A stretch of DNA of 64,000 bases from Tubulanus polymorphus (lineage: Eukaryota; Animalia; Nemertea). Shown in pieces: positions 21,666-57,500 of the stretch. The stretch's first letter is position 1. Each line of letters begins with the position of its first letter. The notes beneath the pieces are model-generated. The model did no database searches and was not told where the DNA came from. It saw only the letters and a program-made list of their open reading frames with translations. Where the stretch lies: NCBI RefSeq assembly GCF_964204645.1, contig NC_134028.1, positions 7,130,001-7,194,000 of the forward strand. The letters run 5' to 3'. The translations under genes were made by a program, and so were the position numbers.

Positions 21666-22319
21666 TATTTGCATATCTTCTGAAAATTAGACATCAGTAC
21701 AAATCTATCGGAGTATAATTCCAGTCGAGATTGCCGGTGATTAAAAATAAACCTATCCCCCCTTCCCGTTAATGTCGAAATCACAAATTTCCCGAGTTTC
21801 GATAATAAAACGAGAGTTTCCGAGACTGTACTTGTGACCGTACTCCCTGTACTTGTGCGTCGAGAGCACCAGCCCCTGAACAGTCCAGTCACAGATGCGC
21901 GTGTAAATCAAGGAAACGAATGAAATAAATATCGAATTCATCGAAAAGCATAGGAAATCCTCTCGGCCGTGATACATCTCTGTCCGTATCGACGTTAATT
22001 CATTGCATAGATTTTCTTAAAAAATAATTCCCCGTTTCAAATCGCGTAGACGAACGATGTCTCCGATCACCGCTACCCGACATTCGGTTCTACGTAGCGT
22101 CTCTCAAAGATCAGCGAGGCAGCACGAAACTCAGAACTCCCGGTCATAACAACCGGCGAATCTAAACAACCGGACAGCTGCGCTTTCATACCGGTATACA
22201 CGCGAAAGTGGGTAGTTCTTCTCCACAGTAAAAACACAATAAATAAATAATCCGATTTCGGTAAGAAACAAAGCTGCCATAGTTCAATAAATGTCATATA
22301 CGGTAGCCAACTTCTAATG

Positions 22320-25300
22320 TCACTGTTGCATGGGACTTTGAGCTGAAAAATAGGATAAACGAAAAATTGACACGTAGAATCTTTTTTCTGGTCTGGAATA
22401 AAAAACCACAATTTACTCATAACTGTATATTCCGAAACAAGCCAAATGATTCCACGGAATAACTTGAACATACCTCTCGTCCGGTTCGCCGATTCGACAA
22501 TTTGTAACAAGCACCTTCCGAATTCTTCTAAAATCATTTTTTCTTGCATAGCATTGCTTTGCCTGGTTCGTTCTCCGTCTTCAGCCTGCGCCAGTAAACA
22601 CGCGCACGTGGCCTCGACGACCTCCGGAGTTATAAACGTATATGGCAACCTGAATATATAGATACACAAAAGTCAAAGATGCACTATGGCAGTATGCCCA
22701 TTACAAAATGCGCCGGGGTGGACTTTTTCTGCCATTTTTAAAATATCACAGGTATTTTAAGTCATCGCTGAAAAATTTACCTTTCCCCCGACGAGGTCTG
22801 GTGTTTCACGTCGGACATTTGAGATGATAATTTACTATTAACAGCAGCCTGTTGATTGACGCGAACCTCGGCTGCGTCGGCTAAATTCATCAACGTCTTC
22901 CGGAGCGGACTTTCTTCGTAGTTTTTACAGCCGACGCAACGACACATGTTCGAACATAAAATCTTCGCCTGTAAGCATATCGAGACGTTAGCATTGAAAT
23001 CATTAGAGTTGGAGTTATAACCACAATAACAAAGTACCATGGGTCCAGTAGGATCAACTTAGTACAGTTGTTCTGGGATTTGCAATAAACATGGAATCTG
23101 CGCAACCCCTCTGTAGTAAGAAGGTTCAACTATGATAAGGTTACGTAGTAAGGTTTTCAGGGCACAAGGCAGAACCATCAATACTATGTTTATTCTAAAT
23201 TCATTGAACTTTTGGATGCTGAAGGGCTTTCCCAGTGATGTCATTATCACGAAACAAGGTCAAGCATCCATAAGTAGAATAGGGAAAAATTCTTTGAGAT
23301 TTTGCACATTTTTCCCAAGAACTTACTAAAGACTTAGAGCTGATGGGCGAAACTTCCCATAATTAATTCCAACACCTATTTCCCTCCTAATGTCAACTGT
23401 CAGCTGTGTATATATTTGTGCCACCAAGAGCTAACAGAACGTTACTCTCAGGACCATTCTATGAGGATCAACGCAGTTGGATGTCGAGTAGATAGAACAC
23501 TTACCTCATAACATTCGCAGTAATTTTTCAAACAGCCGGACTTTTTACAATTACAACCTTTATTGTGACGTCTGCTTCCTCCCGTGCTTTTACCAGCACC
23601 TAGAAAATATACGTACATTGTATACATACACGCCTAAAAACTATAGGACCAGAACAATTTAGGAAAACGCAGAATTCTGTAACGTGATCCTAGGCACAAC
23701 GAAGCACTTTTCGAAGTTCAGTTTTCCAGGTTTGCCGGGTCAGTGGCCACATAAATTCATCCATGGTTTCACCAAATGCGAATCATTTCATATAGGATAT
23801 TATCAACTCGACCACGCGTTTCGATTGCGTCATATTTCGGCGCATGATAATAATAATACACATACCGATTTTCGGGTGAAAAGCGAACGGGTTTCGATCG
23901 AGACAAGATTTAATTGCCCGCGATCGTTCCTCCTCGTGTTCGAGATTGTTCGCACACGTCGTACAGTTACAGTTGCTACAGAATTCACCATTCGCGAAAC
24001 AGTCACAATACCTGCCAGAGAGAGAAATCGACGACAATTTTAAATATCAGCAATAGCAATATCATTTCATTATATGTACCCTAATAGAACATGACATCCT
24101 AAGATACTTATTAAAGAACTCAACAAGGCCAAGAATTGCAATGAAAAATGGCAAACCTAAAGTAAACAAGCTACAAGTCTCTAAATTCAGAAATGCTACA
24201 AGTTCAGACAAAAATGACTGTTTTAGGTACAAAAATGATCAATCGCAGCCATCTTTCCTATCGACCTAATTATTCATGGATCATGAAGAAATTAATCTAA
24301 GTGTCTTCAAAATTTCCATTGAAAATTCTGTATCCAATTCAATCTTATTCAAAATGATGTGAAATCAATGTCTTCTATTCCTCATAGAGACTGACGTTTT
24401 TGTCTCATTTTGATAACTTACAATTTAAGACATTGAGATTTGGTACAGTTGCAGGGTTTTCGCGGTCGCTGTCCCGGAGCTGCAGTCTCTGCACTACTCG
24501 ATCTGTAAAGAAAATACATTCAAGCATCGCTAGTATAGACGGGAATTCATTTATAATTGCAGTATCTATGGTTCAAAATGTTACAATTTATTCGCCCTTA
24601 ATGAATTTCTATTAATAAAGAAACGTGGTTAATAACATATCCAAATTCCCTGGATCCAGTTCCACAGTAGTGAGTTAGAGTTAACTCTGAGTTAAAATTA
24701 GTTCATTTTCTATGAGTTATCTCAAATCATAACTCAGAACTGTGGAACTGGACCCTGAGTTTTCTGTGATTCTTTTCCTAGATTTTTCTGATTTCCCCAG
24801 TTTTCCAGGTCAGGGGTCGACCAAGTTAGTCAAGATAGTTGGTGTCTTGGCAATCATGCCCGAGTTAGGCAAGGAAAACTGAGAAATATTGAGCAATGTT
24901 TAGACGAAGTTGCAAGTAAAGATATCTTACCCGTTCGTATGTCGAGACACGCTCGGCGGTTCAGCGAGTGGCAACGATTCGCTCACTATCATTTCAGACA
25001 CCGGAGTAGCTTGCGCAGAGGGCGCTACCGGTCTCACCAATGGCTTCTTCATCTACGAAAAAAAAAATCGAACAACATTCAGACTTCAGAGATTGCAATG
25101 AGCGTATTTAATCTAGCAACAAATGACAACTGTCTCATCACACATGTAACATTTTGGTCCGTAATTTCGTTAATACTAAATTGATCTATGTATTTTATGC
25201 ATCAATTTGTTATGTAAGGAATATGCATTCAAAAACAACTTTCTGATGGCAAATTCCTCACTGAACAAATTGATGCATAATAAAGGTAGATCGACTGATT

Positions 25301-28271
25301 ATTAACGAAACTATGGATCAAAACGTCACGCGGAGAGCGTTGCTCGAGAAGTCTAAATACGCATTACTTACAGGGTTAGTCGAGATATATTGAGCTGGAA
25401 GTAACGTATAACGCGCCGTGTTGCTATCGCCGGTCGATAGAAGCGTCGCGCCGGGAGGAAGCGTGACTATCCCTCCGCCGCTCGGCGGTCGTATCTGAGC
25501 CGTCGTGACGAGCGTCGTTCCCGTCGACCGGACGACCGACGTGGTCGCCGGTAACAGAATACGCTGAGTGACCGGCTGAGACGACTGACCGGTGATCAAC
25601 CGAGCTGCGGCGATCTGTTAATGAGACTAAAGTACATTAGTTACGGTTAAAACAAGAAACGTTTCCACAAGGCGACCACTTTCATCTGTTTTGCTCCCCC
25701 CGACTATTCTCCAACTGTTTATCCAGATTTAACTAAGAATTCGATCATCAATTAATTAGACTGAAACTGTTCGACCAATGGCAGATAAAGGGGGGAGGGG
25801 GCACCTGGATGGATTCAAAATTTAAGTGTGCCCTCCAGTCAATAAATCCAAATGGGTCATGATGAGGGTCAGAAAAGTCCCCTTATGTCCTAATTTTTCT
25901 GTGGAGGGCCTCTAGAAGCCCACACCAATTGTCATCCTTGCAGGCTTCACATTGCCGAATCTTTCCCACTCAAATTTAGTGCCCGTTCCAATTTTCAGGT
26001 TCACCCCCTTCGAAGAATCCTAGATCCGCCCTTGTGGACTATGCACCCAATCTAACTATCTCAACAAATTTCCCTGACTTGATAATTTTTAGCTTTTCTA
26101 CAAAATATTTTCAAAACTATTTTTTCAAGAAAAGAAAATTCCCCGGCTTTTCCCCAATTTCCCAGTAAGTGACTACCCTGATTCCATTCATTGGGAATTC
26201 GCCGGAACTGAAAAGTTATCAATTTCGCCGTTTTCTATTACCTGCTGTTGAGTGACTGAATTCATCGCGACCGTCGCAATTTTCATCGGCGCGGATACCG
26301 GCGCGCCGGTAGCAGGCGCTATCTGTCGAACCTGGTTTATGCTAGCCATCGGTATCGTGGCTACCTTACCGCCTGAAAATAAAATGGAATTACGTCGTTT
26401 AATAATTGCACGAATAAATCGGCCTTTTTCACGGAAAACTCACAAAGCGAAGAGGGTAGAAGTTCGCAATTTAGCGCGAATGATAACTAGTCTCAACTGA
26501 TAAAAAGAATAGTAATTTATTAACTTTAACTGGTCGATGTTTCAAATAACCAGTCAATTGTTAGATTATGGGGTCGGGACTAGATGGTGCATAGCAACCG
26601 CGCCAGAATACATTTCACGGCATTCCAGGTTTAATTCCACCCGTTTCAAAATGAATCAGAATTCGTTTTCACCTCGGAGCTTGGTTTCATTCATTATTAA
26701 TCTATTTCAACTAAATTTGTGCTCAGTCACTTCTTGTTTTTTTTCTTCAATTTAAGACTATTACAATCAAAAACTTATAATCAACCGCTTCAAGCTTTCG
26801 AACTTGCATTTCGTTTATATATTTCTGGCCTGAAATCGTTAAATATCAAACATCATTCAAGATGTACCAACCTTGACTTTGCGTGCCGCTAGCAGGATTC
26901 GATACCAATCGTATATAATTGAATTTCGAGCCGGGTACTTGTATTTGCTGTACTGTATTGCCAGGTATAGGTATAGTTATCTGTTTAATGGTTCCACCCT
27001 GATTGATCGTCGATAACGGCTTCGACTGAAATCAGATCAATACAGATACATATACAAAGTAACGGCTGAATCCCCAAACATAAAATATTGATTACAACAG
27101 GGTCCCTACAGATCAGTCATTCCTTGAGATGAAGAGTTTTAAACACAAAAATTTCAAATTTTGAAGAAGCATCTGCATCACTTTCATATCCAACTATGGA
27201 CTCCTAAATCGGTTCTGTTTATCTCGATAAACCATAAATTCGGTGGTTTTGTAAAGCAAATTTTCATCCTTTACACTACCTAAACTTAAAGGCACTTTTT
27301 ACTCAAATTAAATGACTTTCTAGCACTTATAAAAGCATTTTCTGTTAAGGAGTTATTAAGGAATCAGGAGTCATAGGGACCCTGTACATTCTAGTGTCCT
27401 AGGTTTAACTGGGCAATGTTCTATACATAGTTTTCTCGACTCATCACCGTATAGGGCATAGCATGGTTTTAATACCACTGACTCATTCAAGTATAAAGGG
27501 TATTCCACTGACCAATCCCAATTATAAACCCTTGCACCAACCCAGAGAGGAAAACACTTTCACTGACCCAATAGTCAAACATTTCAAACTTACCAACTGA
27601 ACTATAGATTGTCGCGACTGTGTTTGCTGCGGAGGCTTTAACGCAATCGACCCGGTTCTGCTCGGCGATAACGTCAACATTTTACTACTGCTATCGGTGG
27701 CCACCGACGTCAGTACGGCTCCTTTCGGCAACACGGTCAACGCGCCCGACAGAATCTTCTGCGGCGACTTACCCGCCGAAACGGGAATCATTGTGATTTT
27801 CGTCGGCGTTTTCGACAACGGCAGTTTATTTTTCGGCAGGATGTTCTTCGGCGGAGTCGTCGTCGACGACATGAGGATCTTAGCCGGCGAGATTAGTCCT
27901 CCTTTCGATATCGTGATAGTTTTAGTCGGCGACGCCGCCGGTAGTCCGATCACGGCCGCCGTTTGACTAGTCGACCGTGGCAACGGTAAAACTTGCGGCG
28001 TAATCGGGATCGTCGGTTTTTTGACGATCACCTTCGTAACGTTCCTTTCCGCAGTGGGTGTTGTTTCGTTCGAACCGACGGTCGCCTCGTTGACGTCGTC
28101 GGCGCCCGATTTCGTTTGACCGGTCGCGGAATCGTCCGTCGCGTCCTCACCGACGCTTGCCGACGTCGACACGCCCTGTATTCGATCCAATTCGGCCTGG
28201 ATGTTCTGCAACGCGACCAGTTCGTTTTCCGCCGGCTGGGAGATGGCCCCCAGTGCCAGCGAACTCGTCAT
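22320..28271 (-). CDS. LIN54: Protein lin-54 homolog (MuvB/DREAM subunit, two CXC domains)
   Basis: Exons 27594-28349, 26872-27025 ([16 protein letters not shown]), 26242-26372, 25372-25614, 24931-25052, 24422-24502 ([15 protein letters not shown]), 23866-24011 ([22 protein letters not shown]), 23505-23599 ([21 protein letters not shown]), 22781-22968, 22474-22649 ([21 protein letters not shown]), 22320-22342 (AQSPMQQ*). The start codon is uncertain; 28271 is the first in-frame ATG in the large exon. Confidence 0.93.
24653..24754. mobile_element. PIF/Harbinger-like MITE
   Basis: CTG|GATCCAGTTCCACAGT...ACTGTGGAACTGGACC|CTG; half copy at ~14820-14848 and relatives at ~11230-11365, ~36118 and ~42230-42432. 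Confidence 0.7.
25776..26034. mobile_element. CAGGGGCGGATC-type non-autonomous DNA transposon
   Basis: CAATGGCAGAT...AGATCCGCCCTTG with flanks TCGAC/TGGAC. Confidence 0.6.
27098..27384. mobile_element. CAGGGTCCCTACA TIR family element
   Basis: CAGGGTCCCTACA...CATAGGGACCCTG with flanks TACAA/TACAT. Confidence 0.75.
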
Positions 28272-28392
28272 TTCTGACGACGCCACGTTGAGACGCTGCA
28301 ACACGGAATTCCCGAAAATCAACTCTCCGCGGATATTTCCTCGACAAATCTGCAAAAAAACATTGAAAATTATCCTAAAAATAATGGTAATA

Positions 28393-28670
28393 CGAGATGG
28401 CCACTTTCCATCAGTTACAAATCCCCCGAGTTTTCCCTGTTTTTTTGCATGTGGTTACACAACATTCCCCGAGCATTCCCTGAGTGACAAATGCTTAGAA
28501 TGTTACAATTCATTCACTTTTCATTGAATCACGCGCTGATTAAGAAATTTGGTCAATAGCATCATCCAAATTCTGGTTGTTGGTAAAATTTGTCAAATTC
28601 CTCGAGTTTTCCCAGAATCTTTTAACGATTCCCTGAGATTTCCAGGTTTTCCAGGTCAGTGGCCGCCCTC
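28393..28670. mobile_element. CAGGGTGGCCACT TIR family element
   Basis: Reverse-complement homolog of 45408-45695; flanks TAATA/TATTA. Confidence 0.7.
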
Positions 28671-31283: not shown

Positions 31284-35888
<4,605 letters not shown>

Positions 35889-37697
35889 ACCGTGAAAGAT
35901 CGTGCTTTCAACGCGAAAAGATCATTCAAAGACTATATTCTGTTTTGCTTCTGGATGCATATGGCCGAAAGTCTTTAGCTTCGACGATGTGCTAAGATAA
36001 ACCTGTCTTGTAAAATAGGATTGCTGATATTTGTTGATTTACACGTGTAATAAATATATGTATATGTACCATATGTATTACCGTTGAAAATCAATGCTCA
36101 ATCTTGTGTCGCTCTCGATTCCAGTTCCACAGCTTTGTGGGATAAGATTAATTCAACTACGGATGAAGATAATGATTTCTGGGCCCTGGTCTCAAATTTA
36201 ATTCAGATTTGCAGTCCTCTGGTATCCCTTGTGGTAAACATTTGATGCGTACGTAAGATCCAAACCCCTTAACACGTTCGCTACCACCATATTTCCAGTT
36301 GCTACTACAAAACAAGTTATTTTGTAGTTGGCCATAGTGATAGTTCAGTCGGCCATAGTTAAAAATCGATCAATAAGTGTTGAGAATGAAGCAGAGATTA
36401 TTCGCATTGCCAGCCAATCGGGAACTGTGTCATTCCAATTGCCAGAGTGCAAATATCTTAACAGTGAATATGATCAGCTACAAGAGATTACTCATAGTGG
36501 CAACAGTCGCAGAACCGCAGACATCTTGTAGTTGGCAGCAAATAGTGGTAACTGTTAATCTGACATCAAGAAACAAGAAAGCGTATTTCAGAGAAAATTT
36601 TTTTTCGAAACGTGCACTACTACATTACACAAAAAACACTTATAAAATATATAAAATTCTTGATTAACTTGCTCGTACAAGATAAATGTAGCACCTCTAA
36701 ACTTCCTGATCCAGGAATTCGCTATCAAAATCAGTTCTTAATATAATGTATGGTAATAATTTATACTCGGGTAATATACGAAAGTTTTACTAATACTCAT
36801 CGAGTTTTTTGTAAATGAATGAAAATTTGTGACCCAGATGAAAATCAAATATTGTATTTCAAGTTTCGGAGTAACAAAAATAAATACGAGACAAAAGTCA
36901 TTAGAATTAGTACAACATATTGCATACATTTAAACGAGACCAAATACCCTTACTGACTCTACACTTCTTCTTTCTGGGGTAAATTAAATGCACCGTTCTT
37001 GTCTTTCAATGATTGCTCATTCGATAACAGAACACATATCCCAGCACAGAGTTCATTTAAACATAGGTAAAGATCAAGTCAGAATTTTAGGTATCGATCT
37101 GTTTCCCCTACAGACATTCAACACTATTTCAACATTCTTCCAAGCATATTTTTGTCATCATGTGCTCAAGAGACATATTTCTTTAATAACACGTAAAAGC
37201 AATTCCATCACTACATCTTCAGATAGCGGTCAACTAAGAATACATATGGTTTGATACTTGGCTTCACCTACTTATTTCTAATGCAGGAGACTAAAGAGTT
37301 CTACGGAGAGTACAACATTGCAGCACTATGTGTGTTATAGTAGAAAAGAAATGGATGAATAAATAAGAAAAGAATTCTAAAATACACAATGATTCATACC
37401 TGATTGGCACAGGTAAAAGAAAACTGTCTTGATTGACGAATGAAATTTTACTGTATTCACCCTAAAATACTGAATAGAACCAACAGAGTAAGGTATAAGG
37501 GGGACTGGAACTAGTCCACGGATGTAAATATTGTTGAGTCATTGATGACTGCAGAGTCAAATCAAACTCAATATCATGAAATGGTCCTCCTATAGATAAC
37601 TTCTCAGCAGTAGAAAACAGATTCGCAGCAAAGGGACAGAGGAAGATTCTAAAAGAAAAGGGGCTCGGAATGTTTAAAGCTGGTAGTAGTACGGTCA

Positions 37698-40600
37698 TCA
37701 TAGTTCTGTTTTCTTGGTGTCTGGCTTGCCGGTGTCGCCTTTCAATTTGCCCGTAACTTTTCCCTCAACTTCGTAAAGACAGTCTACAGAAAAACAGATG
37801 AATCTTATATGAGTAAGTGTACTTGACTGGATAAATAGGCTGCACGAACAGGGATTAAAGATAACCGGCAGATAAACGCCATAGTAACAACGAACTTTTA
37901 ATTGTTAATATGTCTCAACCATCCATCGGTTTTTACTCAAACGGGTTTTTATTGTTTCAAATGTAATACCAGATGATCTATTAAAGCATAGAATTCAAGT
38001 TCTATGATTAAAGGTTCACTTTGAACCAACGGTTATAACTATATCCTATAGAAAAGATACAACCATAATGAATATCAGTATTGTTTGTAACTTGATGTTA
38101 GCCTGGAGGAACGCATTTGAACTTGCTTTTTTGCATGGAATTAACGCGCCATACAAATTTTATTATCATTACTATCATTATTGCTTAGTGGAACGAACCT
38201 TTATTTGCATTGGTTTGTTTCAGGATACGTTTAGCGCACAGCCAGTCCGCTAAATCTTCATCCTGGTGGTGAAAGTACCATTCTTCAATTTCGTCTTCAT
38301 AATCGCCGACCATTGTATAACACTGAAGTAAAATGGAAAGAGAGAAACTACAAATGACGAATGTCACAGCAATGAGTCGACATGAAAAACAAAGAGAGCA
38401 ACTTTAATTGATAATTCTTCAGTGAAATATCATGTTTAAGTATATAAATATCAAACGCTTTGAGTCCTTTCTAAAAAAAGTTTAGGAGACTTTTAGCATA
38501 CCAACCTAGAACTATTGGAATCTAGAACAACAGAGAACTTTATAGCTTACGTGTTTTTGCATTTCCGTAACTTCGGCTGAAGGTGAATCCCACAAATCGT
38601 GGGGAATTCCTAAATCGACTTTAACGCCTTTATTTCTACAATAATAAACACACTGCACCACAACATTGAAAGCAAACATTACCGGTATTCGAGTTTGTTG
38701 GACTTGGTGATAAGGGTCGGGCATAGAATGCATTTGCGGTTTGTGAAAATAGCCTATTGTAATCTAACCATATTCTGGTTACCAGTAAACAATGCAATGT
38801 ATTTGCAATATTGAAAAAACCTTTTCGGAATATAAATCCTAGTGAAAGCTAGCTGAGAACATGTTGAAAGGTGTCTCAAGTAAAGAAATTCTTTTTCACA
38901 ACACAACTGTGGGACAGTGAAGTGCAATCAGTGTGATGGAAAATATGTATACACCTTCTACACTTCTGAATGTGGTAAATCATCAACAATTTTTTTCATC
39001 TGTGCCTCACATTATTGGTCAGTTCATACGAACAGTATGATTAACAAACATCTTAAGAGTAGTGTGTGTAGTAATGCTGAGTGATGGAGAACCAGTGCAG
39101 TGGAACTCGTGACCTGCCGGTGACCAGAGATTCCATTTACCATGAAATGATACCTTTTTCTGCATGAGAGTCACTTCTGCAGGAGGTTTATCCCATAAAT
39201 CATACGGTAAATCCATTTTCACATTAACGCCTTTATCGCTGATTTAAATTCATCATAAACGAATCATTTATCAGCAGATCATCGGGAAAAATTTCTGGAA
39301 AATTCTCGAAAAAGCTACTTACACTAAACCATGCAGAGTGCGCATGGTTTCACTTTGTCCCTTCGCGAAACGGAGACTGCCTTCTTTCTCTTTATGTACG
39401 TTGTACTGCAGAATTCGGTCGCAAATATGAGGATCGACGAGAGCTTCGGCTAAACGCAATTCACTGAAAAATTATGATAATGCCTACATGAATGCTCATA
39501 AGGAGTACTCACTGAAACTAATGCGGAAAATTTAGATCAACTTCATTAAAATCTCAAGTGGCTCAATAGTTAATCGCAGTTAAACGTTACCACCTCGCAT
39601 ATTAAGATTGAAGGGGGTCTAACCCTCGAGTGCAACTACACCGTGGTGCATCAATCGGTGCTGCACTTTACTAGTACATCGAACCGCGGTGTATTGATGT
39701 TATTACCGTAGTAATTAGTTTTTATCTCTATCAAAAGATGGCAGTATCTGTCAAACAATGTGAAATATTAGTAACTAACAATATATCGCACTGTGATGTG
39801 GATGCACAAAGCGGTATGCCTGCTATTCAACACACTGGGGTGGACATTTTTAAGATGTTCAAATTATCTCCAGCACTTTTGGGTATCAATTAGTGAGCAC
39901 TGTAAGAGCTAACACTATCACAATCTTACTAATGCCCGAATGTTCTAGGTTCTAGCCAAAGTCACATCCCTCATACGCTAGGAATTAATGTCAATGAGAT
40001 AACCTCATCTGGCATAACGGGACTGCTCACTCCCTATGACAAGTGTTTTAGTAATGATTATGAAACTGAGCCTGGAAACATTTTCGATAGTACGCCGTAC
40101 TTACGAAGTTCGATAGTCTATTTTCTTCTTGTTCATGTCGAGGTTATAACCGGTTTCGATAGTTTGTTTGTATTTGCCAGTTTCCCTCAACCGGTCCTGT
40201 AGTTCCGTCACTAAATACTTGCAAACTGCGAATGAAATCGAACCAAAAACAGTGTGAAATGAAATACAACGCGAAGTGTGAATATTACATTTGAAGACGT
40301 CTTCTCAGCAACTGACATTTTAGTCATGTGCTCATTTCTGCAATTTTTCCACGTAGCTTTATTGATGAGTGGGATGAAGATTGAATGAGATAAGGAATGG
40401 GTCGAGATAAGGTTTATTGGTGATAATACGGTATAGGCCTAGACTAGAAGTACAAGTAACTTATACACGTCCAGCATGCGTCGGATGAAATGATGAAACA
40501 TGGGCGAGCTAGAAATATTCGAAGGATATAGGGAGAGGAATTTTCATGGCTTTAGCCATGTCCCAAACTCGATGTTAGATATTCTTGAAGAATTACATAC

Positions 40601-40923
40601 GAAAACTTGCAATTTCCAAAAGTCAAGAGTGTCTAATTGGCAGATTTTAACGATCTCTTTCTAGATAAAAAGGGCAACCTGAGTGGGAAGACAGGGCAGG
40701 AGTCGGCTCATGGGATATGAGTATCAAATCAGTAACTACTGCGGCTCAAATTCAACCTGCTCGACATGCTCGAAAGCGAACAACAAAAAAAGTTGTCTAT
40801 CTTTTTTGTTGAATACATTCACTTACCTTCACATTTTGACGGTGGCTTCACCCAGTTGTCATCAGAGTTAACGTCGAATACCAAAATGGTGATAATTACT
40901 GAACTGATTATCAACTTATCCAT
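37698..40923 (-). CDS. CNPY3/CNPY4: Canopy homolog 3/4-type ER saposin-like protein, 217 aa, two isoforms
   Basis: Exons 40827-40923 (signal peptide, PPSKCE), 40105-40225 ([12 protein letters not shown]), 39323-39463 ([35 protein letters not shown]), alternative 39154-39238 or 38551-38635, 38199-38322 ([29 protein letters not shown]), 37698-37783 ending KTEL* (KDEL-like ER retention signal). Confidence 0.92.
38551..38635 (-). CDS. Canopy alternative exon 4b (CNPY4-like)
   Basis: 85 nt, tgtag|...|gtaagc, phase 2 to 0; [28 protein letters not shown]. Confidence 0.85.
39154..39238 (-). CDS. Canopy alternative exon 4a (CNPY3-like)
   Basis: 85 nt, atcag|...|gtatca, phase 2 to 0; [28 protein letters not shown]. 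Confidence 0.82.
39623..39910. mobile_element. piggyBac-like MITE family A copy (degenerate)
   Basis: CTAA|CCCTCGAGTGCAACTACACC...AAATTATCTCCAGCACT...GCACTGTAAGAGCTAA; same internal motifs as the other family A copies. Confidence 0.65.
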
Positions 40924-42039: not shown

Positions 42040-45000
42040 ATGGCCGGAAAGAATACAAAATCTAACACTAACGATATGGCTCTATCGTTGACTGGAATGC
42101 CGGTTACATCAGTCAAAAGACCGAACTCGTCGCGCAGTTCAGTTTCAGGCTCCGGCAGGTTGAAAGAAAAATCTTCATCTCTGGTAAGAAAACGAATCGA
42201 TTACTGGTATTACCAATCTAAACGCAGTTCAACAGTTTGGACTTTGAAACTTAAGATTTGACCCGAGCGTTAACTGATCAGAAATGAGTGAATTTTAACT
42301 CTGACTCACAACTGTGTAGTCGGTAGCGTGTCTGTGGTTTAGTTTCACAATCGGATTAAGCCCATCCGATTATAAAAGCTTAGGCCTACCACCAATGATA
42401 AGGTAGCTAACTAACAACTTTGGAACTGGGTCAAGAATTTTTATCGCTTTTTTCGGGCATCATTTATGGTCCCGCTTATTTTCATTCAGACATCTTTGAA
42501 CATCCAACAGTCGTCTAAATCTAGCGCGGCAGCAGGAGACAGCAGCAAAAAACATATTCGCAGTAAGTAGTTTGTATTTTGTCTCAATTGTGAAATGTGT
42601 GTACGTTCAACGATCGGTAGTTAATCGCAGAGATTTTATTATTTTCAGCCAGCAGCCAAAATCTCGGTTCAATGACACCGGATAACTCAACGCGCAGAAA
42701 TACGGGCAAACTTGATGTCATGAATGATACTACTAGGTACAGTTGGCGTTTTCCAATTGTCTAGAAAATAATGTACTTTGTAAGGTGATGTTGGGCGCTT
42801 CAGAGTTGAACTCTGGCTATCTTCTTCTAGTGAATTTCTGAGTTCTATGGAATCCGATTCAATAATGTCAACTGAAAGTTAAGATATCAATGTCGGTCCG
42901 TATTATCATTAATGTCCCATATAGTTGTAAAATTGTCGGGGTAATCTAAGATTGGCAATCTCTAATAACAGTAACTGATTCATTTATTTTCAGTGATGAT
43001 TTCCTGGCATTGTTTGAAAACAGCGTTCAGCCGAAAATCAAATCGAAACGTCCTCAACCAGGCGCCATGTCATCTTCTGCACTTTCGCGCAAACTCCACT
43101 CATCCAAATCCACAAATTCTGTAAGTGACATTAAGTCGAAGTTTAGGTTTTTAGCCCGCCTCTATTTCTTCAGTTGAAGGAGTATTCATTTGTCAGTTTG
43201 TCTAATGATCAAGTTCATCTTATTTGGATTGCTTTGGTGATAAGTTTTGATATTTTGTTCACACCAAACTTGAGGTAACCCCATAAATCATGTCTCGTCA
43301 ATTTTGTAGTGCCACACGATTTTTAGTTGGATTCACTGGACGAGTATTTAATCTCTGGTATTGAATCATGTGAAAACATGTAACTATGCTCGACATAAGA
43401 GTATGCACTACCCAAATATTTGGCCGATCAGAATCTGACAGCGCTTGTCGGTATGGTAGATTTTGGAGATGCCTCCTCGATCAAAGAGGTTGTGTTGCGG
43501 CTGACCCTAAGATAATCAATACTTCGAGTGGGAGACTCCAGAAGAGGAAGAAATTTGATTGAAAAATAAATAATTTAGGCCTATTTTAATCTTTATTCTC
43601 GTTTATTTAATTGCAGAAAACTGTCCTCACTTCGAATGTCTCTCAAAAATCCGGTAACAAGAAATTTCAACACAGCGTTTTCCAACCGAACAGCGCTCGC
43701 AGTACCAGCTCCGTCGAAACGGATTACATCGATGCGTCGCCTAGCAACAGTCACCGTGCGGTAGGAACGACGCATGGCAACGAATGTCAGAATAACGCGA
43801 CAGCGAACACGCTGAGTCCGAGCATCGCGAATAACATGACCTCGCAGGCGATGTCGCCGACGTTGAAAATGCCTTTCACGGACATCGAGAACGCGTATCA
43901 GAACATCAGACATGACAAAACGCCGGTGAACCTCGTGAAAAACGGAAGCCACAACAGCAGCAGCAGCAACAACGAAGCCGCCGAAAACTACATCAAACGC
44001 GTGAACATGGCGGCGACGCGGATACAGCGGTGGTACCGATGCGCGTCGAGGGAACGACGCGATCGACGCAGCAACGAAACCGCGATGAAACAGCTGTTCG
44101 ACGAGAAACGAACGCGAATGCGCGAACAACGACGATCGCAGCAGATGTCGCCTCGGTCGGACGCCGAGGACAGACGGAAACATCGAGAAGAGAAAGCGCA
44201 GAAAGCGAGACAACAAGCTATAAAGGTTCGCGTTGAGTTGGATCCACGGTTGTAATTTCATTTTGAATTTTTCAGGCCCCCTACAACTGCTTGATTTCAG
44301 TAGGGGCTGAGTATGGTGTCTGCATGGGCGGATCTAGCCTAGGTTTCTGAGTACTGCTCAGCTGTGGCGAAGGGCACCTATATCGTATAGAATTTTGAAT
44401 TTTTAGGGCTCTGAGATGCAATGTTAGCATGTTTGGGGCATAAAATCTATAGTCGTCTATGCATCAACAAAATGAATTTGGCATTTTGACCTGTTAAATG
44501 AAATAGTATTAATAAGTTTACTATTTCGATTATTCAAGTTGACCATTTCAATGACTTAATCGACCAGAACTTGAACAATGGAAGGGCATTTCAATCGTGA
44601 GTACCGCTCAAGCAGTAGCAGCGGTAGGCTGGGTCCGTCCCTAGTCAGGCATTTGCTGCGCAAATTATTTCTACGCAATGTTTTGGTATATTCTTTGTGT
44701 CAATTTAGGAATTGCAGCAAAGACAATTAGAGAAAGCGGCTGAAACTAAACTGAAAGCCGAAGAAGATCTGAAAGCATTGAAAGAGGAGGGTAAACTCGG
44801 TCGAAGTCGCAACAACAATTCAAAATCCAAGTCAAAAAAAGACGAAAAACCGCGGATTAACAAGAATAATTTAGTCGACGATATGGGAGAGGTCGATTCG
44901 ATAAAGAGCGCCGAAGAATCGCGCGCGATGAATCAACTGCTTAATTACGAACAGGTGAATATTTCGATCGAGCAGTCGCTCGTTGTTTTGCAAGGTTGCG

Positions 45001-48000
45001 CAATATCTCATCGACAGTTTTCTATTGATCTAGAACAACGGCGCAGCGGCTGCGGTGGCTGAGGCTAGTGGCGACATCGCGGAATCGAGCATCTCGAAGG
45101 CTACAACGCTCTCCGACTTGATGGACACATTGAAAAAACTGGAAGAGGATGAGATGCTCGACCCCAGCGTGAATGTTGATCAGAAGAAAAAACGAAACAC
45201 GGCTTGGGGTACGTCGTTGTCGCTTTTAGTGTAATAGCTTACGTTAGTAAGAACTTTATGATTCCTGGTGAAAAATCCATAGTCTAATTACGGGCAGTTT
45301 TCACTGCTAACAGTTATTACAGGCTAATGATTTGTAATTACGATCGATTGTTCGTCACATTCAGAATTAGAAGAATTTTATGTCCAAACAAAAAAATTGC
45401 ATTCAGTCATGGTGGCCACTGAACTGGAAAACCTGGAAACTCAGGGAATCAGAAAAATCTCGAAAAAATCAGTGATAACTCATTTTACCAAAAACAACCT
45501 GGAAAATTCAGGGAATTTGGATATTTGATATCGACCACATGTTTCTTTATCAATACATGATTCACTGAAGAATGAATGAGTTGTAACATTAAACCTAGCA
45601 ATTTCTCTGATTTACTCAAGGAATTTTGTTTAGTCACGTGGAAAAATCAGGGAAAACTCAGGGGATTTGTAAGTGGGCGGAAAGTGGTCACCCTGTTAGT
45701 ATTGCGATGATATAAGAGGATCTTTAATAATGAAAAATCCACCGAGAAAAACTCTTAATGTTTGATTGTTTTCGTAGATGACCTCGATAAAACGTTGTCG
45801 GGCAGTGAAGAAAATGATTTCCTGTCTCCGAGAAAACTCGCCAAGCATAACTCTACGAAACCCGACGTCGTCGAACCTCAGCTCATGTCCGATGAAAAAC
45901 TGCGCAGCATTTTCAACTTCCTCGACGAGGTCGACCGCGTCGACCGGTTGACCGTCGTCGAGAACCAGCTCGGTGCCGGTTGCCACGACGACCTGGAGAA
46001 ACCGCCGTTATTGTTGCCGTCGAGCGAGGAGCTGGCCGACATCGAACAGGCGACATCCGCCGCGAACGAGGTGACGGCAACGGTTTTAAAACAGCGGCTC
46101 GAACTCGACGAAAAGAAGCGCTCGGTTACGATTTTACAGAAAGCGCTGGTAAGAATAACATTCAATACTAAACTCCTTAACAAGTAGCTGACACTCTAGG
46201 CAATGCTATCAGGCGACTGAGTACACCGCTGTTGTGAAATAACCATATGCTAGCTAATTGATAATGCTAGCTGATTGCTAAATGATCGATAAGCCCTCAG
46301 AGAATGGATGTATTGGACATAAAGATATGCCCAAAAACCACTACTAATTGAGAGTACCGGTAGTTACTATTCAAGAGCTCAATTACTCACAGAATGCGAA
46401 CCATCCCGATAAGTTTTTGCAAAATTTTGACCCTGAAGTTTAGCTAACTTAGTTATTCGTGAGCGTGATATCAGTGTTCAATTCTATGGTTACATTTCAG
46501 AATCAGCAAAGAGAGCTGACAATTCGACACGCGAAGGAAACGGAAAAAGACATGAAAAAACGTCTGTCCGTGCAAAAGGTCGAATACGAAGAAACGATAA
46601 AACGTCACCTATCTTTCATTGATCAGGTAGATAAATCGATGCGTCATTTCTTGTATTTATATTTTGCGATAGAAAATTGATAATAATGATTTCATGATCA
46701 TTTTTAAGCAAGAGTACCCACAATAATTGTGATAAGTGTCATATATTATTAGTACATGTATAACATTTAACCTCTAGCATGTATCTTTTTAAGTTTTATA
46801 TCAGCATGGGCGTTATCAGTTCTCTCCTTGTGAGATGTGACCTTGGTATTATTACTGAGGAGAAGAAATTATGAACTGATTTAGAGTAATCATCGCTCGG
46901 AATTAGATTTCAAAATTGCTTCTTTATACGCAGTTGATCGATGATAAGAAGATTCTCAGCGAAAAATGCGAAAATCTCTTAAAAGAACTGAAAACGATGG
47001 AGAGAAAGTTCTCCGAGAAAATCAAGCAGATGGAAGAGTCGTAAGTGATGTAAACCGTAGAATATCAGTCGCTTTCATTTTAGAAATTGTCGATTTTCAG
47101 ATGACAAATGTTGTTATTCCTTCTAGGCACGCGGTCGAAATGAGTAAAATCAAGGATATCAACGCGGCGGCCGAAAAACTCAGACGCGAAAAATGGATTG
47201 ACGAAAAAACGAAGAAAATAAAGGTACTGGTTTATACGCAATAGTTAGTGAATATAGCCACTAAATTTCATACATATTTGAAGTGTATATATTTTCTTAC
47301 AGTTAAAATAATCAAAGTTGTAATGCCAGTAGTTTGTTAGTTGCATCTATACCACGGTCCGGTGTATCGTTAGTTACTATTATTTAACTTTTTAAAAGGT
47401 GCTGCAATCTTTCACTAGAGATAAAAACATACTATGAATTACATCAATACATGGCAGTGCAATGTACTAGCAAAGTCCATCACTGATTTATACACCGCAA
47501 GGTGGTGTAGACAGACTGAAAGGGTTGAAATAAAGATAAATCTTTAATGTGAGTCTGAAAATATGATAATTGTATTGGTATTGTAGGAGATGACCGTGAA
47601 AGGCTTAGAGCCAGAAATTCAACGATTGATCGCCAAGCATAAATCCGAGATCAAGAAAATGAAATCGATACATGAAGCCGAGTTGTTAGAATCGGACGAA
47701 CGCGCCGGACAACGATACGTAAAAATGACCGAAGAATTACGAGATCAGTTGGCGATGGAAAAAGAGGCCGCGTGCGCGCGAGAACGAGAACTAGCTAAAC
47801 AAAGGTACGTGCGTCACGGGGCCGGCGGACGCAATTTGAGATCGGTATGACCAGAGGATTAGTGGAACTTCCGAAAGTGGGAAGTGTCACCAGCAAGCGC
47901 CATAAGTACCAAGCCCGGTGGGGGCCTCCCCCAGAGAAATGTTTGAAAATTAGATGCTCATAGATGCATTTTCCTGGCATTTGTACCATAAAATTTCACC

Positions 48001-51000
48001 GACGTTGAACGAGAATTTGGGAGGAAATTGAAAATAACGAATTAAGGTGGATCCGATTTGGGAAGTTATTGGCCGGTTCTGTGTCACACCAGAACCCAGT
48101 TCCATCCTTTCGTGCCAGGTTTTGCTTGGCCCACACAAAAAGCTTCTATTTCACTTTCACTTATTTCGTACATTTTAATGCATCTTTACACAAATCAAAG
48201 GACAAAATGTACATTATTGAGGTTCTGCAGGGTGTGCTGGATACAACCAGATGCAACTATCCACTGGGGCTGGATATAGCAAATCTTTCCCATATATCCA
48301 TCTGCAGTCAGTATCATAAATGAACCATAAGTAATTTCTGCTAAAATGCTCCGTTGTAAATGTCTCATCCTGTTGGCTGAAAATCGTAAATCCAATGCCC
48401 CAGTTTTGTACCGATTTATCGTAGGTACGAAAAACAAATGCAACAAGAAGAAGAAGCGTACCAGGCGCAAAGACGGCGTATGTACAGCGAGATACAGGAG
48501 GAGAAAGACCGTCTGGCTCAACAAGCGATACGTCAGAGAGCCGAAATCGATAAACTACAACGCCAGTTAGAGGATACGCACACACATTCGGTCAGCGCGA
48601 TGAAAGCCGAGTACGAGAAAGCTCGAGAAGAACAAGAACGTCGCCATGCCGTAAGTTTGGACTATACTACTTATTCTGTTGACACCTCGGGACTAAGTTG
48701 AATATTTCACTACGTAAACCTCATACTCATGCATGAATTGTTGACTGATATGAATTTTCTGTTACATGATATGATTACATTTTGTGGGAGAAATATTTCT
48801 TTTCGATAGTAGGATATCAAAAAACTTTTTCTGACCGCTTTATAAAAAAATGTTGTGTTGGTCTGGGGGGGGGGGGGGTATTGTATTGCATGTATTTTTG
48901 GAATCCAGCAGTGAAACTGTAATTGATATTTCAATTAATGGTTCTAATTGCTAGGGTTGAAGTTTATACTGACCTTAGATTTGCAATATTTCTACACATT
49001 CAAAAACTTTCTGCCCTTGTTGGTGATCATCACCATTCTGTAAGTGGTATTAGAACCAGTTTGGGTCCTGTTTGCAACGACAACTCAACGCTTTCTTAAG
49101 TCTCGTGTATCGTGTTATTATGACTGATGGAACTAATTGAAACGGGCTCCTAGATCTATTCTGAAACTGAATCTCTGACCATTGCTTGAAAATCTCATCT
49201 TCTTAGACGGAGACCAAAGAACTGCACGAGAGGCTGCGCATCGAAAAGGAAGCATGGGAGGCGAACTACATGAAAAAACAGGAGACGTGGCTTCTGCAGA
49301 AAGAGAGAGAACTGAAAGAGAACGTGCGGAAAGATCGCGATAAAGAGATCGAACTCGTGATCGGTAGATTAGAGGATGATACGATAGCTGCAAGAGAGGA
49401 GAGTGAACGAGTCGCCGATAATAGAATCAAGTAAGATCATAAATCATAACTAAAAATCATGAAGTTGTAGGTATTAAGGTGTCGTATCTATCCTACGAGT
49501 TTAGTACCGATTGGTTGAGAAATGATGGAGTAGTAGTAGAAGTTCAGCTTGCTGTTTTGAAAGCGGGAAAATAGAATATAGAAAATAGAATAATGATAAT
49601 AATAAGAGGAATAACAATAGGCTTTTCTGCGATAAACGGAAACCCTAATGATAATTCATTTTCTTAAATAGCACTACTAATTCGAATTAAACGCTGATAT
49701 CATTATAAGATATTGAATTTTGAGTTATGTTCTTAAATCGAAAATACCTGTACATGTTTAGTGCTAACGTGAACAAGTAATGTGTCTATCATAAGTTTCT
49801 GACATGCATTTGTTGAGTAGATGAAATGTTCCTATGAAATCCAGACAAGTTTTCAAGTTAGTTTTGAATTTATTTTCGTGTGCCTTTTTCAGGAGGATAC
49901 GAGACAAATACGAATCAGAAATGAGTGAATTAGAACGATCAGAACGGCAAGCGATGGAAAAATATAACGAAATGAAGGTATGTAATGGTTAGATATCTAC
50001 ATCTATAATTTCACAGTGGAATCTTTGGCTATGTATTTGAAGAAAACTTAAATTGAGTATTTTAAGGTTTTATTGCTGTTGTTTTTAAGGCCAAGTTGAC
50101 GGAAGTTGAAGGCGAAAATGAAAGATTGAAAGTGATTATCAAACAAAAGGATCAGGAAATAAAAGACGCTAAAAAGGTTTGTCGGTTTCTTAATTGAATT
50201 CATGAAAAATAATTTAGATATACCAGGGAATAATAGTTCCAACATCCATTTTTGGGGCCCTGTCTTTGTGTGTTATGTTTGAATGGTTGTTTTGTTTTAA
50301 TGTTTGCTCCATCGAATACAGCAAATTCAATTAACCTTTTCTGGATAGATGGTGGCCTCCAATTAACCCTTTCTGTGCTGACTAATCAATACCCTATAGT
50401 GCTGGAGATAATTTGAAAATTTTGAAAAATTCCACCCTAGTGTGTTGAATAACGGGAATAACTCTATAGTGCCTCTACACTGCGGCGCAGTGTATCGTTA
50501 GTTACTAGTATTTCACCATCATTAAATAGAGATAAAAACTAATTACTAATTACATCAATACACCGCAGTGCGGTGTACTAGCAAAATCAATCACATTCAT
50601 TCACTGCACTGCAGTGTAGACGCACTGAAAGGGTTATACCGCAGACACAGAAGGGACAAAACTAATTGATTAATCAATCGAATAAAAACGAAAAATATTC
50701 CCAAATTAAAATCAGTTCTGTCATCAGTGATATCATCGGGATTTAAATGAGGCCTCCATCTTTACGGGATGATGAGCTTTTACTCAAAGCCAGTATTAAT
50801 GAAAGAATTCATCTGTAAATTTGTGAAATACCGATTCAGTCTTTTTCGTTTATAGTCGTCGGAGAAACTGCACTCGGAACGCGACCACGTGTCCGACATA
50901 ATCCGTCAGGAGTTCGCCGACCGAATCGTCGCCACCGACGAGGAGAACAAACGCGTCAAGAACGAAATGTCCGAACAGAAGGCGAAGCACCGCATCGAGC

Positions 51001-51764
51001 TGGAACGAGCTAAATCCGAGATCGAAGTCATACAGAAAGCTAAAGAGGAGGAGATGGAAGAAGTTCATAAAAGGTTCGTGTATCATTCGGAATTATATCG
51101 GCTGAAATGAGATGAATCCTTAACCCTTTCAGTGCGTCTACACCGCAATGCGGTGTATAAATCAGTGATAGATTTTGCTAGTACACCGCACTGCGGTGTA
51201 TTGATGTAATTAGTAATTATCTCTCTTGTAAAATGGTAGCACCTGTCAAACATAGTGAAATATTAGTAACTAACGATACACTGCGCTGCGGTGTAGACGC
51301 ACTACAGTGGTATTCCTGTTATTCACGAACGCCAACAAAATCCTAGAACAGTAATATTCAAGCTCATAGAGAAATATGTTTACTATGTCAACTTTCATAG
51401 TCGTCATTTCGTTATACCTTTGTTATCCCCGGGCTGGCGTTAAAATGAGCTTTGACTGCATGATTCGTGATTAACGATTAAATCTAAAAGTTCTAAAAAC
51501 CAAGTATGTAATTGGTAGAGAGAGGCGCTGTGAGTGTCTTACTCAGGAAGCTTCTGTTATGTACAGGGTCGGAACCCTCGACCTGGCATACCACTGCATG
51601 TCATTCCATGTGAACTATTTTTCTATTTCAGGGTAAAACAGGCGATATTGAAGAAAGAGGACGTAGTAACACAATTACGTCAGCAATATCAGGCAGCCGT
51701 GAAAAGAGCCGATCATTTAGAGGGACTTTTAGAACAGCAACGAAAACAATTACTTAGGAAATGA
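42040..51764 (+). CDS. CEP131: Centrosomal protein of 131 kDa (AZI1)
   Basis: Exons 42040-42183, 42490-42562, 42649-42736, 42994-43120 (DFLALFE), 43617-44225 (IQ-like AATRIQRWYR), 44709-44954, 45034-45208, 45778-46148 (KLRSIFNFLDEV), 46501-46626 (YEETIKRHLSFIDQ), 46934-47040, 47127-47223 (EKLRREKWIDEKTKKIK), 47587-47804 (EMTVKGLEPEIQRLIAKHK), 48425-48650, 49207-49430, 49893-49977, 50090-50176, 50856-51073 (IIRQEF), 51632-51764 (RADHLEGLLEQQR). Confidence 0.93.
44323..44643. mobile_element. CAGGGGCGGATC-type element
   Basis: CATGGGCGGATCTAG...GGGTCCGTCCCTA with flanks GTCTG/GTCAG. Confidence 0.6.
45408..45695. mobile_element. CAGGGTGGCCACT TIR family element
   Basis: CATGGTGGCCACT...AGTGGTCACCCTG with flanks TCAGT/TTAGT. 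Confidence 0.7.
50367..50633. mobile_element. piggyBac-like MITE family A, near full-length copy
   Basis: TTAA|CCCTTTCTGTGC...GCACTGAAAGGG|TTAT. Confidence 0.8.
51124..51325. mobile_element. piggyBac-like MITE family A, truncated copy in inverted orientation
   Basis: TTAA|CCCTTTCAGTGCGTCTACACCGCA...; reverse complement of ~50440-50633. Confidence 0.75.
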
Positions 51765-54579: not shown

Positions 54580-57500
54580 TCATTCTTTCACACTGTGAAG
54601 ATCCAATCCCATTTCTTTCTGAAGAAATTCGATAGCTTTTTCTTTTTCAGCCTGAAAAAATAATGTCGACGTGGATTAATACATGCATGTAGATTTACAT
54701 ATCCATATATACAAACGAATTTTCGGTTTAGAAGTATGTTTCTTGAAACTCCCTAGATGAGTCGACTCGGCATTCAATTCTTACAAAAGTGACGGATTTT
54801 TCCGTTCAAAAACACGTTGTTCTTTGAAAATTTACGTACCTCGATTCGTTCGGAATTCCAGTTTAATTGTTCCGACATGATTTCTATAACGGTCGGCAGA
54901 CATTCGTACGCTGCACGGGCGTTGATAAACGAAAGTCTAGTTCTACGGGCCAGTACATCTACCGCCGTACATCCATACTCTACAACTGCATATTTCACCT
55001 AAACATTTAAAAAATGGCACATATATATATATATTCATATTTGAATATTATTTTTCATTTGAAAGTAAAAGTATTTCGATCGCCTTCTTTCTTGTATTCA
55101 GCGGTTTGTGTTTCTTGAATCATCGACAGATTTTTAGATCTCATCATTTGTAAAATCCACCCAAATTACGACGAGACATTTGAATTTTATATATTGCAAG
55201 AGTAGCTCATTACGCATTTACGATCCATGTTATGAAAATGAAGATGCTGAAATTTCGAAATATTTGACTTAAGCGCCCCTGTAGGCAAAAAAGAAAAAAG
55301 GTAAAAAAAGGCGAATTCATAACATATAATAGCCCACAACATACCCCGGCTGTCAATTGAGCCAGGATACCAGTTGTTGTAAGCTGTAACAAAGAATGCC
55401 ACGATCGTCGAATTTTTCAGGCTGACCAATAATCCTCCAGTGGAGGTCACTTTTTGAAAGACTTTATGATGACGAATAACTTACTTCAGCTTGTATGTAC
55501 GGATAGTCGGGATGTAAACGTTTTCCGGTCATCGGCCATCGTTTTGTCGTATCACATAGCTTAACCACGTCTTCAGCTCTATCACCGTACGTTTCTACTA
55601 AATGTTCAGCAATCTAGAAATCAATAGTATAAATTAAAACAGGTTACGTTACCATTGTAAAAAACATCGAATGTAGGAAGTAAACGTTAGAGACCTGTTA
55701 ACGATTGATATTGGAAAGATTTCCATAGATTTGTTCCCAGGACACCACGGGGAGTTGCGTGATGAAATGAGGATTTCAAGATTATTTTAGATTTCATCCG
55801 TTTCATTAGTAAGGACATGAGCTTCATATTCATTATTTTGAAATCTTTATTCGTAAAACGAATGACAGAGATTTTTTTCACACGCTGTGCTTTATGTAAT
55901 GTATTTTGACATACTTCGCGAGCTACTCCGTAGTCTTGTACTAATTTCAAAAATAACGTCGGTGACCATCCGTGAGCGCCCTCTATCAGCAGACCATGCG
56001 TACAACATTTTGAAGCTTTGAGATTACACAACTCGACGGCTTTATCTATGGTTTCCTCTGCCATTAGTCGATAAGTTGTCCATTTGCCTCCTGTTTCAGA
56101 ATAGCCACGAAATTCCATTAACCACGATACCCATTATAACAACTACCAGATTCGTCCGGATTTACATACTCAATCATACCCATCAGATCGAACGAAATCT
56201 GAGGATTTTCAATTATTAGCGTTCAAATACATATAAACTTTTGAAAATTTGAAATTGTCACGCGAGTACATACCGGCTATAGTGATGAGATTTGATTTGC
56301 TGACTTCGATCACGTGGTTTCGAGCTATGGATTGAGTATCCTGTTTATTCGGATTTCTGACTAGTGGCCTAATTCCGCTCCAAACTGATAATACGTCCTC
56401 CCTGCGCACTATGGGTGTAATCAAAGAGAAGGATATTCAGGTGAATAAAATTTCATCTCCTTATACATCTTGAAATTATTTCTAGGAATTATTCTCTTTT
56501 TGAGTTATTCTTTATTAGTCAATTTTTTGTCGCAAATAATTTTCTTGAAAAGTATGTCCCATCATCTAGGCTCTCGAGTCTGTTCTGGCTCGAGAGATTC
56601 TATCATAAGTTGGCCCGGGATTTCCTCACAGACAAAACTTACCGCTAATATCTTTTGATAGGTAACGTTTCAATTCGCTGAGAACGAACTTGATTTCAGC
56701 TTCTTGCGGTTCCGGACTTTCTGATATATCACAAGGCGTATCCGTCGTGCCTAAAAACAGATAACATTGGTGTGGAAATCTCTAGCTATAAGAATAAATA
56801 ACTATGGGAAAATAATTCCTAATTTCGAAAAATTCTTTTGGTAGAGCGCTTCTTGGGCGACATTTTGTCCGGTTATCTACAGGGCCGTATTTAACAGGGG
56901 CTGCCTCCAGAAATTTTGGGATTGTGCCCTTTCTGTAAATATTATTGTTATTCCCTATAGAACTGCCCTTTTTCGGGTTTCTCTGCCCCTACCCCTGCCC
57001 CAATTCAAATGCTAGGTACGGCCCTGACTTGCCAGATTTTACTAAAAAAGCGCTTTGGATTTGCACCATAATTTACCGACAACTGTTGAATCGAGCCAGG
57101 GAAGTATGAATAAGATTCGTCCGTCGCTCGTCGAAGGATCCAGTAAACCCAGTGTTGATTCACTGTAAAAGGAGTGAAGTATTTATATTTGGCCACATTC
57201 ACCAAGATCGTCTAAAATATTCAACATTCAACTTTTTCGCAGGAGAGAAATTGATAAAATTGATGTTTGTGAAATTGAATTCATGATAGTTAGCAGTGAA
57301 GTTATTGGTGAGTACGATAGACTTGCGATCGCGTTTTGAATGAATGAAAAAATGCTGGGAATCTATATTTTACCAGTAATATTTAGGTAGGACTAGATGA
57401 ATTCCGGCACTGGGAGCGCAGATCTTTTTAATGCTTGAATCGTCCATCTGTCTGACGCCATCGGTAAATGGCCCGGTCGCGTTGATGACACATTTGGCGC

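Follow-up and report, generated by a model that had tools for sequence, protein, structure and literature searches.

Canopy proteins and a possible separation of splice isoforms

Splice isoform separation, in which tandem homologous exons are each kept by another paralog, is an established phenomenon, described with an exon-tree test for CALU, MARVELD3, U2AF1, the FYN family, and CACNA1C/D (PMC4494069). A canopy gene of the nemertean Tubulanus polymorphus, located in a window of 64,000 nucleotides of contig NC_134028.1, resembles these cases in carrying tandem homologous exons whose types each correspond to a different vertebrate paralog. The 11 cases of Abascal et al. (2015; PMC4494069) begin at human exon pairs and, in the accessible rows, are dated to chordates or vertebrates, whereas the canopy pair survives in invertebrates only and would be bilaterian in age. 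The string CNPY has no occurrence in the main text of that article.

Vertebrate CNPY3 (PRAT4A) and CNPY4 (PRAT4B) encode saposin-like proteins of the endoplasmic reticulum (ER). Their DUF3456 domain, six cysteines, and KDEL-type end recur in the T. polymorphus protein, for which a saposin-like fold is predicted. The two nemertean exons encode alternative 28-residue blocks that match the two vertebrate genes, one with a CNPY3-like K-M-D motif (M-D type, exon 4a) and one with a CNPY4-like D-L-G motif (L-G type, exon 4b), and two intron positions are held in common with human CNPY3. The nemertean locus differs from the vertebrate pair in being one gene instead of two and in where the exon starts at its 5′ end, its length being 85 nt against 123 nt in human CNPY3. 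Exon 4a also lacks the N-x-T sequon and the majority of the CNPY3-specific residues that follow Trp. Drosophila CNPYb is likewise a single invertebrate CNPY3/4 gene but differs in that all insect blocks obtained, including one from a fly, are of L-G type. RefSeq isoforms X1/X2 of the clams Mercenaria and Dreissena swap the same block between identical flanks; these isoforms are already visible in automated annotation and known only from it. A literature search with most subscription papers outside its reach, which took in bioRxiv 10.1101/2025.10.13.682155, returned no report of this exon pair, although its novelty could be affected by the gene lists in the supplements of PMC4494069 and PMC9741552.

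Gene structure and the alternative exons

The canopy gene runs on the minus strand from 40923 to 37698 and has six coding positions (Table 1). As claimed in an earlier note on this DNA, 4a and 4b are tandem homologous exons of 85 nt each, open, with AG/GT flanks and the same phase (2 to 0), and they encode the peptides written there; the 4a donor is off consensus at +4 and +5. Either exon alone gives a protein of 217 aa ending in KTEL. With both included, translation ends at 149 aa, where a TAA follows one additional K, and with both skipped it ends at 143 aa, which bears out the claim of an immediate stop with both exons and a lost frame with neither. As read from the sequence, either/or splicing alone is productive.

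Exons 4a and 4b are identical at 56/85 nt and 17/28 aa, with 9, 3, and 16 differences at codon positions 1, 2, and 3, respectively. Across 127,828 six-frame positions in the window, 4b scored 93 against 4a and the runner-up 22, and no third canopy exon copy was found within the window. All 17 constrained columns of the family are intact in 4a, 4 of them having been fixed by the pattern used to gather the family peptides. Simulated random change of 4b retained all 17 in 0 of 100,000 trials at 28 changes and in 21 of 100,000 at 14. Because 4a keeps every constrained column and has few second-position differences (3/28), both exons are judged to be under protein-level selection, in agreement with the constraint that the earlier note ascribed to them. 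The AG-free zone of the intron before 4a is 54 nt long, compared with 52 nt before the first alternative exon of an annelid-like locus (L006, below).

Table 1. Features of the canopy locus and its surroundings (window coordinates)
Feature	Position	Strand	Remarks
CXC-domain gene	22000-28500	-	Pfam TCR; presumably lin-54-like
COP9 subunit 4-like gene (presumed)	33200-35900	+	Tail to tail with canopy
E1 coding part	40827..40923	-	Signal peptide and first Cys; matches P0001 aa 1-32; E1-E2 joint CT..AC in run X2
E2	40105..40225	-	Joints on both sides in X2; 3′ intron matches human CNPY3 c.275+1 in place and phase
Repeats in intron 2	39600-39910		High-copy short repeats; in X1, these and those of intron 5 reach summed depths of as much as about 37,000, with many loose ends
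E3, constant	39323..39463	-	Ends in phase 2; 46 aa match P0001 at 100% identity; X2 joint to 4b at depth 172
Intron before 4a	39239-39322	-	84 nt, a multiple of three; contains stops
4a	39154..39238	-	85 nt, K-M-D type, CNPY3-like motif, without N-x-T sequon; donor AAG/GTATCA
4a-4b intron	38636..39153	-	518 nt; unspliced cover in X2, depth 43; read-through stop after 44 codons
4b	38551..38635	-	85 nt, D-L-G type, CNPY4-like; annotated (RefSeq protein P0001) and observed form; joints E3-4b and 4b-E5 in X2
E5, constant	38199..38322	-	Starts with conserved Cys; X2 joints; 5′ intron at the place of human CNPY3 c.495+1
Repeats in intron 5	37855-37906		High-copy short repeats (see intron 2)
E6 coding part	37698..37783	-	Terminates in KTEL-stop; 3′ UTR extends past 37000
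CEP131-like coiled-coil gene (presumed)	43600-51100	+
Glycerol-3-phosphate dehydrogenase-like gene	55700-60600	-	Weak Pfam DAO_C

The 4b isoform is identical, letter for letter, to the RefSeq "canopy 4-like" protein of T. polymorphus (P0001), which forms a single-member cluster. The match to Pfam DUF3456 (PF11938) scores 144 bits (cut-off, 21.1) over aa 30-180, and the gene product is a CNPY3/4-family (DUF3456) ER protein. Its six cysteines (Cys 31, 34, 87, 149, 177, and 191) include a CXXC, and the spacing of the last two is 13 residues, compared with 11 for C194/C206 of human CNPY3. An N-terminal hydrophobic helix (residues 4-16) in the structure model is a putative signal peptide, a call made from the model and not by a predictor, and the KTEL end is a KDEL-type ER retrieval signal. 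The helical model is confident (pLDDT 88; a single-sequence fold reached only pLDDT 35). In it the block occupies residues 121-148, comprising a helix end, the motif loop, and the start of the helix leading to Cys149. The predicted place of the block in a saposin fold is a loop together with the beginning of helix 3. A PDB sequence search gave no match, the best-probability PDB structure match was pERp1/CNPY5 (E 0.5-0.8), Foldseek returned nothing at E<=0.001, and canopy clusters were the sole ones named in an Atlas search.

Expression in T. polymorphus

Five sequencing runs were compared with the locus. No run is on record as RNA; X2, the only one to show splicing, was judged RNA derived from five GT-AG joints (E1-E2, E2-E3, E3-4b, 4b-E5, and E5-E6), and X1, X3, and X4 are without splice joints. 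X5, possibly an RNA run of a different study, yielded 0 contigs on the locus at 85% and at 80%, giving evidence in neither direction. The junctions by which the earlier note would have each alternative exon joined to E3 and E5 were thus recovered for 4b; neither an E3-4a nor a 4a-E5 joint occurs in the contigs of the five runs, with splicing visible in X2 only. Exon 4a is represented by a 633-nt X2 contig (depth 43) that starts at its exact first base and crosses the 4a-4b intron to reach 4b. Upstream of 4a, the 84-nt intron has no X2 cover, and intron 2 and intron 1 are covered at depths of 16 and about 7, respectively. As X2 contigs start in the same exact manner at the used acceptors of E3 and 4b, we infer from this assembly behaviour, not from a junction, that the 4a acceptor is used. 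In the X2 sample, 4b is dominant and 4a is present only with the downstream intron retained.

RefSeq has one isoform for this gene, the 4b form. This, the greater depth of the 633-nt contig than of introns 1 and 2, its lack of a 4a-E5 joint, the off-consensus donor, and the read-through stop after 44 codons all fit a 4a that makes protein no longer, being either a recently silenced exon or a regulatory decoy giving intron-retaining, unproductive RNA. Such a loss is nevertheless unlikely, given that all constrained columns are kept with so few second-position differences and that assembled contigs drop rare junctions, with one spliced run only. It has no bearing on the age of the pair.

The exon pair in other animals

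The exon pair is real and conserved in at least three animal lineages. Mercenaria mercenaria isoforms X1 and X2 (P0024/P0031), named "canopy 4-like" and "canopy homolog 3-like," respectively, by automated RefSeq annotation, have 11 differing residues, all within aa 134-155, and Dreissena polymorpha isoforms X1 and X2 (P0047/P0137) have 10 differences in the block, with all 70 flanking residues identical. These are the only same-species M-D/L-G isoform pairs among the 344 of 465 proteins with full block and flanks. A second Mercenaria canopy protein (P0051) has an M-D block, diverged flanks, and no C-terminal retrieval signal; it is perhaps a recent gene copy retaining only the M-D exon, with isoform separation under way.

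A metagenome contig scan gave 42 loci, 8 of which have E3, exon 4, and E5 as separate exons. In L006, which protein similarity marks as annelid-like, E3 is followed by an L-G exon, then an M-D exon, and then E5; the alternatives are 85 nt each, have AG/GT flanks, and obey the same frame logic. The order of the alternatives (M-D first in the window, L-G first in L006) and the single L-G exon of 7 of the 8 loci, several of them near copies, count against one ancestral gene with an exon choice. The L006 pair is identical at 61/84 nt, with cross-species same-type values of 58-60. The long identical starts within pairs (13 nt in the window and 14 nt in L006) suggest gene conversion, which would yield mosaics such as a 4a that is CNPY3-like in its motif only. 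Insect-type loci (L032-L040) have the same 85-nt borders with a single L-G exon and a downstream intron of 5-6 kb where E5 was seen, which makes the 85-nt exon unit older than Spiralia.

Among 188 distinct block peptides, columns 8-9 are [ML]-D in 25 and [LI]-G in 163. Named proteins of rotifer, acanthocephalan, and trematode origin also carry M-D or L-D blocks, and all named arthropod, echinoderm, and tunicate proteins gathered are L-G; the insect blocks obtained include that of a fly protein named canopy b (P0123). No M-D block was found in named invertebrate deuterostomes among the proteins gathered, which include no named cnidarian, a further point against a single ancestral gene. Clusters for oyster (among 15 of 67 members listed), mussel, octopus, limpet, Lingula, Owenia, Mya, Ciona, and Acanthaster have no annotated M-D isoform. 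The N-x-T sequon is present in 135/137 M-D proteins and 0/207 L-G proteins, mostly vertebrate rows. Three Mytilus proteins (P0413, P0429, and P0430) have L-G blocks with T and V-A after Trp, as in the M-D type, and are possibly converted hybrids. P0379 (48 aa, ENA) has a K-M-D block and, unlike spiralian exons, no intron before it; it could be a deuterostome M-D form. An apparent exon pair in cattle P0150 was rejected, the double match being a repeated stretch followed by unrelated sequence.

Relationship to vertebrate CNPY3 and CNPY4

The block is nearly invariant across 118 vertebrate CNPY3 sequences, and the human CNPY3 and CNPY4 motifs quoted in the earlier note agree with the vertebrate sequences found. 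The Mercenaria M-D block is identical to vertebrate CNPY3 at 24/28 positions and to its own L-G partner at 17/28. The corresponding values for 4a of T. polymorphus are 15/28 to CNPY3, 16/28 to CNPY4, and 17/28 to 4b; 4a is CNPY3-like in the three-residue K-M-D motif only and is without the glycosylation sequon that the clam M-D exons carry. The M-D versus L-G difference is much older than vertebrates, in line with the earlier note, and is present as isoforms of one gene in each of the two clams; L006 supplies an exon pair of matching size and phase from a second animal genome.

Trees were built from 41 and 43 hand-picked rows out of the 465 proteins. The exon tree separates M-D from L-G at 89/87 with the motif columns included, the same columns that define the labels. 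When these three columns were removed, the clam M-D blocks, P0380, and vertebrate CNPY3 grouped at 95/91, which suggests that the CNPY3-type block predates the protostome-deuterostome split. On the same tree, the blocks of flatworms and rotifers, like 4a and the M-D exon of L006, fall outside the CNPY3 group, and the M-D label needs 5 changes, which speaks against one ancestral gene. A clade of 4a with 4b, which the earlier note had named as the sign of a lineage-specific duplication, does not appear in the best exon tree, though it is not rejected (p-AU 0.18). AU tests rejected no rival grouping on either the exon tree (p 0.11-0.18) or the flank tree (p 0.16-0.35). With flanks only, vertebrate CNPY3 and CNPY4 are sisters under LG+G4 (70/93); under a mixture model this grouping was not recovered, and clam, worm, and nemertean flanks stand apart from both (90/94).

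The E2/E3 and exon 4/E5 introns are shared by the window and human CNPY3. The phase-2 intron at the start of the 85-nt exon is replaced in human CNPY3 by one before G125, which is found in both vertebrate types (29 M-D and 13 L-G genomic-type ORFs, assigned by sequence) and is absent from the window. On the ORFs compared, this common pattern ties vertebrate CNPY3 and CNPY4 together. Because both vertebrate paralogs are without the phase-2 intron, descent from one gene with an exon choice would require either two losses of this intron or a remodelling of the exon unit.

Evolutionary origin of the pair

On balance, it is somewhat probable that the either/or pair is older than the protostome-deuterostome split and was later divided, with CNPY3 keeping the M-D exon and CNPY4 the L-G exon. 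The bilaterian ancestor would have had one gene with an either/or exon choice, and the pair would have passed, M-D to one paralog and L-G to the other, in vertebrates. Gene conversion may have made the two copies partly alike, many lineages may have lost the pair or changed its order, and 4a may be a minor or tissue-restricted form. A rather unlikely alternative, by which two genes (CNPY3 and CNPY4) already existed in the bilaterian ancestor and in spiralians the tandem copies fused or one acquired the exon of the other, explains the age of the M-D/L-G difference equally well and offers a route to the differing exon orders. It also accommodates the M-D/L-D blocks of rotifers, acanthocephalans, and trematodes, and AU tests do not reject a placement of the CNPY3 flanks beside clams (p-AU 0.35) or beside the M-D proteins of these animals (0.32). 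In addition, the exon-3 motif is of the same type as the alternative exon directly after it, being H-K-E..R-F in the window, as in CNPY3, and H-A-E-R..R-Y in L006, as in CNPY4, but arthropod proteins pair a CNPY3-like exon-3 motif with an L-G block, which makes the motif an unreliable marker. Among the named records, no invertebrate has the M-D and L-G types as separate genes, the vertebrate intron pattern is absent from the window, L006, and annelid-like loci, and the best LG+G4 flank tree unites CNPY3 with CNPY4 (70/93).

Convergent exon duplication in orthologous genes is common, according to the accessible part of PMC9741552, where common ancestry was found for only 7 of 42 human-fly shared events, and this too weighs against one ancestral pair. 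Independent duplication of the exon in nemerteans, annelid-like worms, and clams, with the M-D motif arising more than once, would account for the reversed order in L006, the long identical starts (13 and 14 nt), the L006 identity of 61/84 nt, which is not below the cross-species same-type values, and the closer similarity of 4a to 4b than to CNPY3, and within-genome clades are not rejected. The clam block, with 24/28 identity to CNPY3 including the N-x-T sequon, is hard to obtain by convergence, however, and the three-column switch would have to recur in several phyla. As a general account independent duplication is quite improbable; for the window's own pair it is possible.

Function of the swapped block

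The swap concerns a part of CNPY3 with recorded mutational effects. In the numbering of mammalian CNPY3, R121, K124, G125, E131, D146, Y149, S156, and C166 agree with published human variants, and M145 is the M of the motif. Human M145, D146, Y149, and S156 are located inside the block, and the swapped motif includes M145 and D146. In the accessible parts of the sources, CNPY3 M145K loses gp96 binding (PMC2982182, in which the species of the numbering is not stated), CNPY3 S156Y does not restore surface TLR2 (PMC13694807), and D146Y, Y149C, and S156Y are patient variants, at least two of them classed as uncertain (PMC13694807). The effects of M145K and S156Y within the block suggest that the swap hits a functionally sensitive surface.

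An on/off switch of GRP94 interaction was considered and set aside, as proteins of L-G type are reported to work with GRP94/gp93. Fly CNPYb is described as the gp93 co-chaperone for TLR folding (PMC6566547 and PMC7503973, accessible parts), CNPY4 is reported to interact with Grp94, and the insect blocks obtained are L-G, so the swap is probably not on/off. It may instead tune the client or partner preference of a putative GRP94 co-chaperone, and in clams it would also add an N-glycan site at the predicted sequon. Human CNPY3 and CNPY4 act differently, and oppositely on TLR1 (PMC6566547, accessible part).

Exclusivity would most simply follow from the reading frame together with nonsense-mediated decay of transcripts with both exons or neither. 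RNA pairing was not supported as the exclusion mechanism, since in each of 10 duplex tests 26-162 of 200 shuffled sequences scored as low. A distant branch point acting by steric block was likewise unsupported, the AG-free zone before the second exon being 15 nt in both the window and L006; the middle intron of L006 is 487 nt long, against 518 nt in the window.

Significance

The division of the pair, if true, would be an unusually old case of paralogs sharing out an ancestral exon pair. It is conceivable, if doubtful, that human CNPY3 and CNPY4 are halves of one bilaterian splicing switch, that the two differ in function through the 28-residue block alone, and that clams and worms still retune an ER co-chaperone by splicing. 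CNPY3 is a TLR co-chaperone and an epilepsy gene, and CNPY4 is its TLR1 antagonist and a lipid regulator. Isoform pairs identical but for the 28-residue block, which holds M145 and the positions of the patient variants D146Y, Y149C, and S156Y, point to that block as the difference between CNPY3 and CNPY4 and offer a ready swap experiment.
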